This document shows positions 24,736 to 31,227 of a stretch of DNA of 64,000 nucleotides, in pieces. Numbering within the stretch: the first letter of the stretch is position 1; each line of letters opens with the position of its first letter. The position numbers and the translations under genes were made by a program. Origin of the DNA: Mobula birostris (lineage: Eukaryota); the NCBI RefSeq assembly GCF_030028105.1, contig NC_092384.1, positions 29,756,546 through 29,820,545 of the forward strand, read 5' to 3'. Under the pieces are notes generated by a model. The model ran no database searches, was not told where the DNA came from, and saw only the letters and a list, made by a program, of their open reading frames with translations.

Positions 24736-27308
24736 TGTGACTCCCTTACAGAAGGAAAGTTCAACAGTTGAAAAGAGCACTTGTTCTGCTCTGGAACTTC
24801 CAATCTATGCCTCCATTTGGTGCTATTTAATGAGCTCAAGAAATTAATTTAAACATTTTAAAATAAGTTAAAATTGTATCTGGTGAAACATTCTTGTATC
24901 TTCTTTCTGAAAGACGTCTGATTAAATTATTTTTAATGTTTCTCGATGGTGATGCACCTAACCTGTCTGAAAAGAAAGTCAGAAAGAAAAAAAGATGATA
25001 TAACGTCAGTTTGAAATAATTTAATGTGTAAAAGCAGATTTGGTAGTATTTACACATGCAGAGCCTTTGACATGTTCTGTAACACTGATTTGACTTGAAT
25101 GCACCCTTGGACAAATATCCACAATAAGAAGCAATACACCATCAGATGTAAGTTGGGAACTTATTAAAAGGCACAGTCTGGTTTTACTTATCACTTTTAC
25201 ATAGGTTGAATGAATGAAAAGAGCTAAACAGCATGAACTTGGACAAAAAGTTTTTAATCATCAAAAGATAAAAGATGAAAAAATAATCAGAAAACAGGTT
25301 TCCTTTCATGAAGGGCAGGCAACAGCCTGTGGTGAAAGGATTTTGCCTGGTTCATGGGCTAAATTCAGTAATACTTCTCTCTCCAGTTCCATAGCAGAAG
25401 AAATAATGGCTAACTTGGTTGGTGGCATTATAACTGGTACCAAGCTTAATGCTCATCTATGCTGCAAAAAAAATGGACTGCTGGGAGAACTCAACAGGGT
25501 GAACAGGATCTGTCAGGAGAAAGAATTTGTCGATATTCAGGTTGAGGCCTGACATTGGCACCTGATGCAAGGTGTTCAACTGAAATGTCAACAGTTCCTT
25601 TTCCCCAACAGATGTTGCTTGATTCACTAAGTCCCTCCCGGAGTTTGCTTTTGTTTGTTCCAGATTCTGGCATCTGCAGTATCTTGTATTCCTTATTCTT
25701 GCTGCCCTTTTATGGCACCATTAAGATCTTAATCAGATTTTCAGAACTCTGTACTCAGCCCTTGCTCATGCCTGTGATAGCTTGAGCTACCCTCTATGCA
25801 GTATGTGCAGCAAATGCTACAATGACAACACTAATGAAATATATGAGTCTGATAGGAAAGAAGGATAGGTAACTAAAGGTTACAGTTGTTTTCATACAGT
25901 TGTTTTTATACAGCTGTGGTATTATTCTGACACACAATTATATTGACTTTTAAATAACACCAAGACCTATATATTCCCCCTCATCTTTTATGTGGGCAAG
26001 AGCATTTGAGGGCACCAGTTTAGGACCACATTTAGAACAAAATAGTTGGATAAACATATTCACTGCCTTAAATATTCACTCCATCTGTTACAGTGGTTGT
26101 AAAGAACACCATCCACAGAACACACTGGAGCAGGTCTTTTCAACAGCATTTCCAAATCTTAAGAAAAGCAAGGCCATCAACTTTAAAATCACTAATTTGG
26201 TATATCTCCATCCTTCCAGTGTGCGGAAACAAAATCTTGGCAGTTCCTACCCAAACATTGTGCAAAAACCTTCCCCAGAATGGCAGTGGTCTAATAAGGT
26301 GGATCAACAGCATCACATTGAGAGCAATTTGCTGACTTCACAACAACTATCACATCTGCATTTATATTATTGTGTTATCAGCACTATTCCAGGTTTCCAT
26401 GCCTGCACCAGCCTTTCTGATTGGTTAATAAAGGTTTTCACATATAATTAATGATACTAATCCCGCCCCCCCACACACACACAACACACACACACACTTT
26501 TCGGGTTTACTTGAACTCTGTCTTGGCTCAACATTTCTTGGATTGCCTTGCTTTCAATGTCCCAGACGAGCTGGAGATCAAAATGTCCATATATCAGATC
26601 TCATGCACCCCCTGGAGCTGGTGGCAGAGCCTCGAGGATCCTGGGAGTGGAGCAGGAGGAGTGTGGAAGGCTGGTAGGCTGACAATAGCCTTGTCACTTA
26701 AATCAGCCCATCGACTCTGGGAAGAAGTAAGTGCAGTTTTACCAGAATCTTTAATTATTTGTTAACTTTGAACCATATTTAATGATTATGGAGACTGTCA
26801 GAAACGTATTAACTGATCTTTTGTAGCATCAAGCTGCCAGTGTTGTTCACTTGTTCACAGTTTGGGCCTTGAGGTGCCCAAGACCTGCTTGCTGTGTTTA
26901 TTCCCAGGATGGATGCCAGTTGTGAGAGCCCAGCTCACTTTGTATCCCTCAGTCAGCCCAGCTCGCTGGGTATCCCCCAGCTGGGGTGCAGCTGTGTGGC
27001 GCAGTGATGAATCTGAACAATTGTGTGGTTCCTGCATTAACCTGCTCATTATAAGTATGTTAGTATAAAAGACACAGTACGAACAGGGTAGAAAGTTCGA
27101 TGACTAATGGAGGTGTGATGGAAAAGCTATCAGGACAAACTAACCACGATAAACAAACTCATCACAGTGCATATGCATTGTGACAGTTTAAATTGCCCAA
27201 AATTTGATTAATAGCTGTTCTGGGAAAACTAGATCATCCATACGCATTTCTGAGATTAAAATAGCAAGCCATCTAATTCAGCAATTGAACACAAGAGCCT
27301 GTGGTGGG

Positions 27309-27508
27309 TGTTATGTTGCTTCTGTTTAAACGTACCATGGATTAACAGTAAAGAATCATATTCTGGAAGAACTAGAGAATGTTTATTTACAGTAATAAAC
27401 AAACAAGTCTTAACCCAGCCACATGCTGGAACATTCTGGCAATCCCACGCATGCTCAGTGCTCTGTCCAGTCATGTACTGGCACATCATTGCATGTGATA
27501 TCACCACA
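27309..27508 (-). repeat. 3' LTR
   Basis: Direct repeat of 30306-30505; preceded on the - strand by PPT AAGAAAAGGAAGA (27509-27521). Confidence 0.95.
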
Positions 27509-27748
27509 TCTTCCTTTTCTTAAAAAGAAAAACAATTAACAATGTTAATCAAAACACATCTATATCAGATAACTGAAACTCTGAAGTTGACTCTTTCTTA
27601 AAACCTTTGCGATTCTTTCTTAACACTGCTCCCTCCTCTGTTTGGACCATGTGTGATCTGGTCTGTGTCCATGTGTTCCTTTTATCTTGTATCCTCACTT
27701 TGTCTCCTTGTCCTTCAGACAAACATCTCCTAGATCAGTCAACTCACG

Positions 27749-27892
27749 TTCCACTTCCATTTGTAATGAAATACGAATCTTCTTTTCTTCATCTAATTCA
27801 CTCATTAACTGTGTAATCTCTTTTTTATGCTGAGACTTCATCATTTCAATAATACTTCTCAATTCCTTCACTTGTGCTTTCACTTCTTCCTC
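27749..27892 (-). pseudogene. SH3KBP1: Captured SH3KBP1/CIN85-like C-terminal coiled-coil fragment
   Basis: [47 protein letters not shown] versus recalled human CIN85 [47 protein letters not shown]. Confidence 0.85.
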
Positions 27893-28165
27893 ATACTGTG
27901 CCCACTGTGAGCGTTCTTGCTCTAGACGGTGATGAAACGGAATCTCATATTCTCTCAATGTCTCTTTCATTATCACTTGCATTGAAGCAACCTCCTCCTG
28001 CCATTGCTTTTTCACATCATCAATTGCCTCCTGTTTGGTCGTCTCAGATACTGCAGCCACTGCTTTTATGTTCTCCATGTCAGCATTTGCCTCCATGGGC
28101 TGGACCTGCAGTCGAGTGACATCACCTTCTGCTGACTGTAATGCAACATTCTGTCACTTCAGCTC
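27893..28165 (-). pseudogene. RABEP1: Captured Rabaptin-5 (RABEP1-like) N-terminal coiled-coil fragment
   Basis: LK*QNVALQ...[65 protein letters not shown] versus recalled human RABEP1 LKRQNAVLQ...EAQAEMENIKAIATVSENTKQEAIDEVKRQWREEVASLQAVMKETVRDYEHQFHLRLEQERTQWAQY. Confidence 0.88.
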
Positions 28166-28510
28166 TGTGTCACTATCCAAGACAAAAATTCCTTTCACCA
28201 AATTAAGTCTTTCACAGGCAGATAAACCCAGAATTGACTGTACATTTTTTGGCACGACCATAAATGAAAGCGTGTGCACAATATTTTTGTGTGATACCTT
28301 TGCCACGCATGTTCCTTTAACTGGAATGTCTGCACCCGAACACCCAGTCACTTTTATATTTGTCTGATGTAACCTCGGTCTTGGCTTTAAAGCATTGATC
28401 TCAGATTCTGCAAGAACATTCACTTGCGCTCCAGTATCAAGTTTAAACAGAATATTGTTTTGATTCACTTGCAACGGAATAGTCCAGTTATTCTTACTTT
28501 GTTTATTTTC
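28166..28510 (-). pseudogene. Retrotransposon aspartic protease domain
   Basis: FKLDTGAQVNVL active-site motif and SILGLSAC. Confidence 0.9.
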
Positions 28511-29060
28511 TCAAAGCACATCTATATAAAATTCCTCACGTTCATCTTCATGCACAGCATTTACTTGTTTCAATTTATTTTCCTTCTTTCTACTTTTACA
28601 ACAGCGTGAAAAATGATTAATCTTACTGCAGCCATTGCAAATTTTGCCATATGTGGGACTCTGATTTGGACGATGTTCCCGCGCACAGTGATCACGTGAC
28701 TTTTTTTCTTTCCAATGCCGTTTTGTTCTCTGTCGGTTTCGTCGACGTATTATTTTATTTCTTGATGTATTCACGCTCTTTTACAGAGTTTACATTGCAG
28801 TTTTCGACAAAAAGCTCTTCAGCCTGCAACGTCACAGTCTCAGAAGCTTTTACAAAATTTAAATCTTGCTCTCTCAACAGCCTTTCTCTCAGAGCATTTT
28901 CTTGAATGTCACAAACAAGTCTATCTTTAGTGAGAGAGCAATCCAAACTCGCATGTTCTATTATGCTTTCTTAACTCAGTAACATACTGATCAATTGTTT
29001 CAGCAGCTCTCCGTGCACATGTGAAGAATTTATATCGCTCATACGTTAAATTACGCTTAG

Positions 29061-29942
29061 TGTTACGTACCCCGTAACTGGGTTGCCAAACCAGCAGAAA
29101 TGGATCACTCAGTTGGAGTCAGGATTACTAGAACTAAGAAAGTTTTATTAAAGAAACAAGCAACACAGTAATCGAAAGGATAATAAATGCAACAGTTCAG
29201 CAATGATAAACACACATGTGCACAGAATTAAGATAACAGCATCAATCAAGCTCTGTTGTTGTCTAGGGGTAAATGACCAATTTCAAAGTGACACAAAGTT
29301 CAGTCCAATTTAGTTCAGTTCACAGTAATCGTTGCCATGGCGATGGACAATGTGGGGGGAAGGAGAGAGAGAACGAGAATGACTGATCATTCAGAACGGC
29401 TTCCACTCACAGACTGGCGATATTGCTCACAAGCAGCTTTCGGGCGGGTCCTTTGTGATGTCACCTGAGGTCACCGACTGTGACCCCTCCTCCAGATGCG
29501 GTCGATCCTCTGCAGTGAACCCGGCACCCAAGCAAGGGTGGACACACACCGGGTTCCCACTGATCGTACCTTTCCACCCTGTGCGTTGAAGGCTGATCTC
29601 CCACTCAGCCGTCCAAGAGCTTCCCACCGACTTGTGAGAGGCGCACCGCTTCCAGGGTCTCGTTACCTCGAGTGTCGTGTGTGTGTTTCCTTAGCGAACC
29701 TGTCCCTTTTTATCCCCCTGCTGGGGTATAGCCTGTCCATCACTTCAAACAGTTCAGGGTTCAAAGGGGGGAGCCGCTCTAGACAATACCCAGACTGATG
29801 GCTCCTTCATTAACATCTCCAAATGCTGCTTCATTGTTCCTTATCTCTCCCTCCCCTGAGGACAGGTGGCAGACCAACTGCTGATGCCACTGGTGCTAGC
29901 CCAGGCCAGCAAACATCTTAATTTATGTGTATCCTCGTCACA
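29061..29942 (-). mobile_element. Solo LTR (882 bp) inserted in gag, with 4-bp TSD TTAG
   Basis: Ends TGTTACG...CGTCACA; TTAG at 29057-29060 and 29943-29946; removing it restores gag CIPKRNLTYERY; minus-strand GATAAAAA and AATAAA. Confidence 0.88.
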
Positions 29943-30290
29943 TTAGGTATACAAAATACTTCAAATCTGTCCATTATCGACTTTAAATTGAAATTATCTC
30001 CATCTTCAAAAACAAAATTATTATATACCTCTACTGTGTCATTCCGGATTACATGGAGCAAAAGCGCAGCTTTGTTTTTTTCCTATTTTTCTTTATAATC
30101 GATCGCTGGTAAGTACAGTTCAAACTGTTGCTTGAATATCCTTCAATTCGCAGCCATATTGCCAGACAGCTGAAGTTTTGGTGGGGGTTGTAAACCTTCC
30201 ATTTTACCGTTTACAGTTCGAAATTTTTTCTTCCTCTCTTTTTTTTTGATTATCTTCGATTCTCGATTCTCCCGTATTATTCTTCCAGAA

Positions 30291-30305
30291 CCACTTCTGA
30301 CACCA
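30291..30305 (-). promoter_or_regulatory. Primer-binding site complementary to the tRNA-Leu 3' end
   Basis: TGGTGTCAGAAGTGG directly after the 5' LTR. Confidence 0.85.
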
Positions 30306-30505
30306 TGTTTTGTTACTTCTGTTTAAATGTACCATGGGTTAACAGTAAAGAATCATATTCTGGAAGAATTAGAGAACTTTTATTTACAGTAATAAACAAA
30401 CACATCTTAACCCAGCCACGTGCTGGAACATTCTGGCAATCCCATGTATGCTCAGTGCTCTGTCCAATCATGTACTGGCACATCATTGCATGTGATATCA
30501 CCACA
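30306..30505 (-). repeat. 5' LTR
   Basis: Direct repeat of 27309-27508, followed on the - strand by the PBS. Confidence 0.95.
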
Positions 30506-31227
30506 GTGGGAATATAAGACATGTATGAAGAAGGTTTATCAGTCTGGACTTTATGGCCAGCTGTGAGGTGCTCAAACTCACTACAGATGTACAAATAAGA
30601 GCAATTTGGCTTGGCTCCGTCTAGATATTTCTTAAATATTTTATCTTCAATTATCAATCCAATTTATTTTGAAAACTGCAATTTTTGTACTTCCATCACA
30701 CTCTCAGGCCTTGCACTCCATATCCAGACAAGCCGTTGAATTGCTCTTTGTTGTATCTCTACTGAAAGTCTCTATTTGAAAGTATCATTAAAACTGTGTC
30801 CTATGGTTCCCAACAATTTCACCAATGGGAACAATGCCTTCTTGTTCACATTGTAGAAAAACTCTAATAATCCAGCACCACTGGGTCTTTGGGAATGCTG
30901 GATTAGCAAAATTTCATTTTATTGGATGTTATTTCCATCAATGCATCAACGCACTTTTATTTCACAGTTTTTGTGCTTTACCCATTAATATAAAATTTCC
31001 AGTGAAACACATGAAGGGAGTGGCAAATATAGCACTCTGGAGACCAGTTCTGGTTCTGAACTGACAAATATTCCTTACCAGGCACAGGAGCCCAACATTG
31101 GTTTCAACCTGTGGTCCTGATCCCAGCTCAGCCATAGTTTGGCTGCATTCCCTGTTTGCACTCTGGACCCTGGCTCATACTATGTATTAGTGAGTGAGCC
31201 AGATGGAGGACCATCATCATTTCCAAA

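Follow-up and report, generated by a model that had tools for sequence, protein, structure and literature searches.

A multicopy, pol-less Ty3/Gypsy family in Mobula birostris that carries RABEP1 and SH3KBP1 mRNA fragments fused in frame to gag: a likely product of successive template switches

The 64,000-nt stretch of Mobula birostris DNA analyzed here (NCBI RefSeq assembly GCF_030028105.1, contig NC_092384.1, positions 29,756,546 to 29,820,545; in the following, the window) contains at 27309 to 30505 a long terminal repeat (LTR) retrotransposon in which pieces of two host genes, RABEP1 and SH3KBP1 (CIN85), occupy the place of the pol core. This element is best understood as a decayed copy of a multicopy, pol-less Ty3/Gypsy family whose spliced host cargo stands in frame with gag, and which was likely built by successive template switches and likely mobilized by co-packaging with pol-bearing relatives. 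The probability of this reading is put at about 0.8.

The identity of the cargo, first proposed in a sequence-only reading of the window, was borne out by database comparison. Pfam recognizes a Rabaptin domain (PF03528, E = 1e-39), a PDB search returned the SH3KBP1 coiled coil (E = 7e-14), and the SH3KBP1 piece has its best protein matches, at 96% identity, among SH3KBP1 proteins of rays. On DNA level, the cargo is 93-98% identical to host exons of the same genome. Two cargo-matching exons (95% and 93%) of the host RABEP1 gene lie 9 kb apart on contig C29, and the intron between them is absent from the element. Likewise, exons of the host SH3KBP1 gene on C7, one of which is identical across 84 residues to a devil-ray protein, match the cargo, while both introns are absent. 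GT-AG borders were read at the missing introns of both genes. Since the host introns are exactly missing, the cargo is derived from spliced host mRNA. The cargo interrupts a discontinuous LTR element, with protease upstream and integrase tail downstream as matched to pol-bearing parents, and its joins lie at short shared words, with microhomology seen at each of the four junctions displayed. Neither poly(A) nor a target duplication was found at the cargo borders, which are direct joins at microhomologies. Capture of spliced mRNA by template switching, as the sequence-only reading had assumed, is thus upheld. The same reading had RABEP1 joined directly to SH3KBP1; the two donor genes stand, but the two-part structure does not. 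Instead, the SH3KBP1 piece adds net 129 nt inside a RABEP1 exon, after which the sequence re-enters this exon where it had left it, giving the order RABEP1-SH3KBP1-RABEP1 (R-S-R). An alternative in which the element was spliced into RABEP1 was rejected: the 5' switch does map close to where the exon starts, but no GT donor exists at this place in the parent, and a shared word explains the join. A further genomic stretch, C3:220417130-220417243, matches the middle region of SH3KBP1 at 58%; it presumably belongs to the paralogue CD2AP and is not the cargo donor.

As the sequence-only reading had anticipated, the cargo is found in many copies with different target duplications. A search with the cargo gave 490 candidates, a number that includes partial matches from sister families. 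All 40 candidates that were scored hold nearly the whole cargo at 92-100% identity and are distributed over many contigs, and 30 fetched cargo loci comprise 29 R-S-R elements and one R-S element that ends after the SH3KBP1 piece. The copy number of R-S-R is estimated to lie in the low hundreds. Target duplications (5 bp, at most one mismatch) were scored at loci with both LTR ends placeable and compared with displaced controls. They were present in 15 of 17 R-S-R elements, 11 of 11 elements of a family with an additional SLU7 piece (R-S-SLU7), the single R-S element and 6 of 7 pol-bearing parents, as opposed to 43 of 288 displaced controls, and 31 of 33 were distinct from one another. The combination of shared switch points and new target sites identifies R-S-R as a product of secondary retroposition. 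At one locus (L012), a second, partial R-S-R cargo fragment lies about 155 nt beyond the 3' LTR.

Several sister families carry parts of this cargo or additions to it. RABEP1-only elements (R) have kept the start of the reverse transcriptase (RT) and an uninterrupted RABEP1 exon; among 30 fetched loci, they are represented by 9 dispersed loci and 13 copies on C17 (L082-L094, 45.9-87.1 Mb) with common interruptions of about 560 or 1,370 nt. Because these interruptions are identical among them, the 13 copies were likely multiplied by a large multi-copy duplication and not by retrotransposition. SH3KBP1-only elements (S; 66 candidates scored, 242 candidates in another search) contain a longer piece from four exons and display several 5' junction types. 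In three of them (L043, L044, L047) the 5' junction takes in about 45 nt of upstream host-exon sequence that the RT-linked S form lacks, which suggests that host SH3KBP1 mRNA was either switched onto a second time or captured over a greater length at first. R-S forms terminate at the exact 3' junction of the S family. The R-S-SLU7 family adds about 190 nt of spliced SLU7 sequence from three host exons on C8 (93 candidates; 69 of 78 matches non-host), and in most fetched copies the protease is also lost, so that Gag is fused directly to RABEP1. Introns are absent at GT-AG borders in all three cargos, RABEP1, SH3KBP1 and SLU7. A fourth cargo was not seen in samples of 30 loci each for the RT start, the leader and the integrase tail, every sample comprising the top-scoring matches only. 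Two forms were seen once: a RABEP1-to-SH3KBP1 crossover that arose independently at another shared word, in frame and on the other backbone (L057, C34:23565500-23572000), and a cargo-free deletion joining gag in frame to the end of integrase (L240, C24:22694899-22698128).

R and R-S-R cargos share the same ends and differ by a net divergence of only about 0.002; hence, RABEP1 was likely captured once. The existence of R-only and S-only families, together with intermediates carrying the exact 3' junction of the S family, indicates that the two mRNAs were most likely taken up by separate elements and later joined by inter-element recombination. The sequence-only reading, in which one non-autonomous element transduced both mRNAs, holds with respect to non-autonomy, while its single transducing element gives way to probable separate captures.

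Recombination of LTR elements occurs between co-packaged RNAs, and candidate partners are present in the same genome. The expected relatives with a full pol were found, including parents with the same LTR: 23 of 30 RT-start loci continue into RT (five are S and two R), and 8 of 30 loci matching the leader of the window element reach the RT core, with LTRs 92-96% like those of the window. These parents are about 4.4 kb long and, by Pfam, hold RT, RNase H and integrase in the order protease-RT-RNase H-integrase between their LTRs. They display the Ty3/Gypsy features of tRNA primer site, polypurine tract and short target duplication, and there is no room for env in their roughly 4.4 kb, as the integrase tail lies about 180 nt from the 3' LTR. 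With short LTRs, a 5-bp target duplication, a single gag-pol frame and no env, the parent family resembles the Mag clade of Ty3/Gypsy elements. Net divergence of gag and protease between R-S-R and window-type parents is about 0, and two parental groups are set apart by a net synonymous divergence (dS) of 0.14-0.30 at ratios of nonsynonymous to synonymous divergence (dN/dS) of 0.06-0.40. In a gag tree of 51 copies (at most 9 per family, randomly picked from 103 usable ones), copies of R-S-R are intermingled with members of one parental group, those of R and S with members of the second, and R copies are spread over several sublineages. Because near-identical cargo sits on diverged backbones, the cassettes must have recombined repeatedly with helper genomes, and such recombination with helper RNA in turn implies co-packaging.

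The proposed course of events would start from the 4.4-kb gag-protease-RT-RNase H-integrase parent family, which is observed. Its RT-to-integrase part would have been replaced by RABEP1 mRNA (R) and, in another lineage, by SH3KBP1 mRNA (S) at microhomologies of 6-17 nt; the products are observed, the process is reconstructed. Recombination of R and S RNAs would then have yielded R-S, from which a further switch back to R would have produced the R-S-R family of the window, while capture of SLU7 mRNA, followed by protease loss in most copies, would have led to R-S-SLU7. Shared junctions make this order the simplest one. The cassettes, observed on several parental backbones, would have recombined repeatedly with helper RNA and hence been co-packaged. 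In a last step, regarded as somewhat more probable than its opposite, only products with one frame from gag to the integrase tail would have spread, the element's own Gag fusion aiding its RNA in cis through packaging or escape from decay. The cargo would then be mostly filler, picked by purine-rich microhomology and stop-free frames.

This last step draws on the reading frame. Fifteen junctions (captures, crossovers and internal deletions; a 117-nt deletion removing the stop region was left out) were seen at more than one locus, and all of them maintain one frame from gag through to the integrase tail, whereas only 54 of 245 private indels are divisible by three. When these sequences are compared for exact shared words, 0.39-0.67 of the words are in frame, depending on their length, and by our own arithmetic the chance of 15 of 15 is about 3e-5 at 0.5 and 0.002 at 0.67, the junctions being not fully independent. 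The difference between 15/15 and 54/245 suggests selection for translation in cis, as in the mouse IAP 1-delta-1 element. In addition, amino-acid changes are underrepresented among shared non-CpG variants of gag in R-S-SLU7 (p = 0.0006) and S (p = 0.014), and translation looks constrained on these comparisons. Several observations weigh on the other side. Microhomology is itself frame-biased, as the in-frame share of shared words demonstrates; some families were found via protein searches, which favor in-frame cargo; and the common 117-nt deletion takes out the natural stop region. For R-S-R, shared variants give no significant sign of purifying selection, whether in gag (p = 0.24), in the protease (p = 0.10) or in the cargo (p = 0.76). 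Finally, all 8 parents examined are decayed, with LTR pairs 90-94% identical, similar to those of the cargo families. Two further observations were discarded: the low cargo dN/dS relative to the host (0.01-0.12) most likely reflects synonymous change in the host gene, and apparent shared indels in gag mostly trace to the anchor copy and to homopolymers.

Frame-keeping could alternatively be a by-product, if switching between stretches that are codon-periodic and rich in purines often lands in frame and the families travel as passive RNA passengers that do not have to be translated themselves. The in-frame share of longer shared words, which reaches 0.5-0.67, and the missing selection signal within R-S-R agree with this, and passengers without coding function, among them mouse ETn and bovine D-type endogenous retroviruses (ERVs), spread well according to the cited passages (PMC6466679, PMC10924933). 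Yet, 15 of 15 in frame is improbable even at 0.67, and gag of R-S-SLU7 and S is depleted of amino-acid changes, although recombination with coding parents could explain the latter. A by-product is conceivable but doubtful.

A second alternative is that the cargo itself was selected for function. Gag-fused host coils could serve as oligomerization or condensate tags that give defective Gag and RNA preferential entry into helper particles, so that captures with coils, and the recombinants made from them, would outpace other derivatives. R, S, R-S, R-S-R and R-S-SLU7 would then record the stepwise optimization of a RABEP1/CIN85 rod, hijacking helper particles, across tens of millions of years of stingray and devil-ray history. 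Two independent captures do include known coiled-coil regions, and later deletions spared the coils while trimming the integrase tail, RT, protease and the proline-rich portion of SH3KBP1. Modelled from its single sequence, the chimera is predicted to form a continuous helix of 119 residues (residues 21-139; mean pLDDT (predicted local distance difference test) 84, pTM (predicted template modelling score) 0.44), and the chimeric families seem to outnumber R alone. However, the model indicates only that the joins do not interrupt the predicted helix, and a single-chain model is silent on binding. Shared amino-acid changes in the R-S-SLU7 cargo are fewer than expected (21/12 vs 135/33, p = 0.034), but this value fails after three tests, the other two of which are null (S, p = 0.58; R-S-R, p = 0.76); hence, no selection on the cargo residues themselves was demonstrated in the shared-variant tests of three families. 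Cargo divergence between families is too small for testing, with almost nothing to work with for net dN/dS. Moreover, the captured pieces are purine-rich (0.58-0.69 compared with 0.54 for pol), which may explain why Glu/Lys-rich helices were captured: coding sequence for such stretches is purine-rich (0.65-0.69), so microhomology alone could favor coils, and the SLU7 piece is a Lys-rich stretch with no known coil. SLU7, the third cargo gene, encodes a splicing factor, and what the pieces have in common is purine-rich codons, not a pathway; the relevance of a common endocytic-trafficking role, at which the sequence-only reading had hinted, thus finds no support. Both a tagging function of the coils and their stepwise optimization are considered unlikely. 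The weakest alternative, an assembly chimera, L1-type processed pseudogenes that entered the element later or a single locus multiplied by segmental duplication, gains from the 13 duplicated R copies on C17 the point that duplication does happen, but as an origin of the whole family it is refuted by dozens of loci on many contigs with almost exclusively distinct target duplications, by cargo borders free of poly(A) and duplication, and by the same junctions in other organisms.

Regarding the latter, the RABEP1-SH3KBP1 join is bridged by short-read contigs under three other organism labels, among the pieces listed. Contigs bridging junctions also occur in sequencing runs that were guessed to be RNA but may contain DNA. 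Identical junction peptides occur in database proteins of the two stingray genera Hemitrygon and Hypanus, so the chimera likely predates, on this sequence comparison, the split of these stingrays from the present ray lineage. Contig joints near window positions 27595-27800 and 27957-28163 show variants in other organisms which are absent from the fetched loci and which therefore represent further subfamilies in related rays. Median Kimura two-parameter distances between paired LTRs are 0.07-0.09 for the cargo families. An absolute date of about 6e7 generations, obtained with a measured elasmobranch rate of 7e-10 per generation (PMC10587355), was judged too old in view of CpG decay and the uncertain ray rate; the age is thus bracketed solely by occurrence in other genera.

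The features of the window copy are compiled in Table 1. The element lies on the minus strand, and the 200-bp LTRs, GTGGG duplication and polypurine tract described in the sequence-only reading were all recovered; the LTR pair has TG...CA ends and 13 mismatches. The primer-binding site exists as well, while the tRNA-Leu assigned to it depends on the tRNA's shape: the primer-site pattern has 8 genome matches (reversed control, 0), two of four fetched matches fold into tRNAs that have an intron and a long variable arm, and ARAGORN labels these Thr, having detected no tRNA at default settings. From the long variable arm and the intron position, the primer is probably Leu(CAA). Gag and protease are present and the integrase C-terminal remnant is confirmed by alignment, with 27-nt and 117-nt deletions relative to the parents that are family-wide. 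As previously noted, RT, RNase H and integrase core are missing: Pfam found none of these families in the eight window stretches scanned. The sequence-only reading had overlooked that gag is split by an 882-bp insertion flanked by TTAG. It is matched by none of the other 29 fetched loci, and a contig joint omitting it is seen in other sequencing runs. Being about 80% like an LTR pair around gag-like frames elsewhere in the genome, it is likely, to judge by this similarity, a later-arrived solo LTR of a different family. This nested LTR is very high-copy, with contig depth far above that of its host element in three of four runs guessed to be RNA. The window copy is decayed, with stops and frameshifts in gag, an early stop in the first RABEP1 piece and a frameshift in the second.

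Table 1 Features of the R-S-R element in the window, listed from its 5' to its 3' side
Feature	Position	Strand	Basis or remark
Target-site duplication GTGGG, 5' side of element	30506..30510	.	flank repeat
5' LTR, 200 nt, TG...CA	30306..30505	-	LTR comparison; 92-96% to LTRs of pol-bearing parents
Primer-binding site	30291..30305	-	complement of 3' end of intron-containing tRNA with long variable arm (likely Leu-CAA)
gag, 5' part, decayed	29943..30202	-	frame reading; no net divergence from gag of parents over the stretch compared
Nested insertion, 882 nt, TG...CA, TTAG duplication	29061..29942	.	private to this copy
gag, 3' part, Cys/His knuckles, decayed	28511..29060	-	frame reading; gag tree
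Aspartic protease	28167..28510	-	PF13650 and PF13975, E = 3e-8
RABEP1 cargo, first exon, 203 nt	27964..28166	-	95% to host exon
RABEP1 cargo, 5' part of next exon	27878..27965	-	9-kb host intron absent
SH3KBP1/CIN85 C-terminal coiled-coil cargo	27749..27889	-	matches three host exons; both introns absent
RABEP1 cargo resumes, 3' part of same exon	27700..27755	-	93% to host; bears the frameshift of this copy
Integrase C-terminal remnant	27549..27702	-	alignment with pol-bearing parents
Polypurine tract	27509..27521	-	purine run read directly
3' LTR, 200 nt	27309..27508	-	LTR comparison
Target-site duplication GTGGG, 3' side	27304..27308	.	flank repeat

Gene capture by LTR elements is usually viewed as yielding rare, low-copy end products. 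Here, each step persists as a family of its own, in numbers sufficient for statistics, and a single vertebrate genome contains donors, helpers and recombinants alike. Captured exons pass between elements and stack, which amounts to exon shuffling within a transposon population. Sequence alone can thereby test whether translation of their own Gag is a requirement for non-autonomous LTR elements, and whether selection ever acts on captured cargo because it is of use to the element. On the practical side, copies are annotated as 'RABEP1-like' or 'uncharacterized' in ray proteomes and can inflate paralogue counts.

The mechanism as such is already known from LTR-mediated retroposition and maize Bs1, while scale, surviving intermediates, three donors and strict frame-keeping stand out, with no such account found in the literature searched. 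A description of this family was not found there either, although Repbase, Dfam, subscription journals or the supplements of PMC5131818 may list it. The cited passages of Tan et al. (2016, PMC5131818) cover multi-gene chimeras and refer to Bs1; like the ray families, their retrocopies comprise partial spliced mRNA between the arms of an LTR element, microsimilarity at switch points, several parental genes per chimera and further rounds of non-autonomous retroposition. In contrast, those retrocopies are young and low-copy (9 fly retrocopies at 18 insertion sites, 5 of 7 zebrafish cases), whereas at least 86, 66 and 69 ray loci carry the RABEP1, long SH3KBP1 and SLU7 pieces, respectively, intermediates survive and every junction is in the gag frame. 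Maize Bs1, as summarized in the same report (PMC5131818), is likewise a defective LTR element; it combines fragments of three host genes, and its copies have switch points in common, but it occurs in 1-5 copies with one piece out of frame, while the vertebrate families described here number tens to hundreds of copies, all in frame. Mouse IAP 1-delta-1 is also a helper-dependent, non-autonomous deletion derivative in which internal loss leaves an in-frame Gag fusion, and this protein is reported to act in cis (PMC6466679); in the ray families such a cis effect may exist, as the frame statistics indirectly suggest. As described there, however, IAP 1-delta-1 is retrovirus-derived and a simple gag-pol deletion that carries no host cargo. 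Crocodilian ERVs with KIT-ligand or nectin3 mRNA, finally, are vertebrate LTR elements whose captured host mRNA was copied further, though according to the sections cited they are retroviral and present in 6-9 copies with near-complete single open reading frames under purifying selection (PMC4299795), in contrast to the short fused fragments of several genes within the env-less Gypsy elements of the ray.

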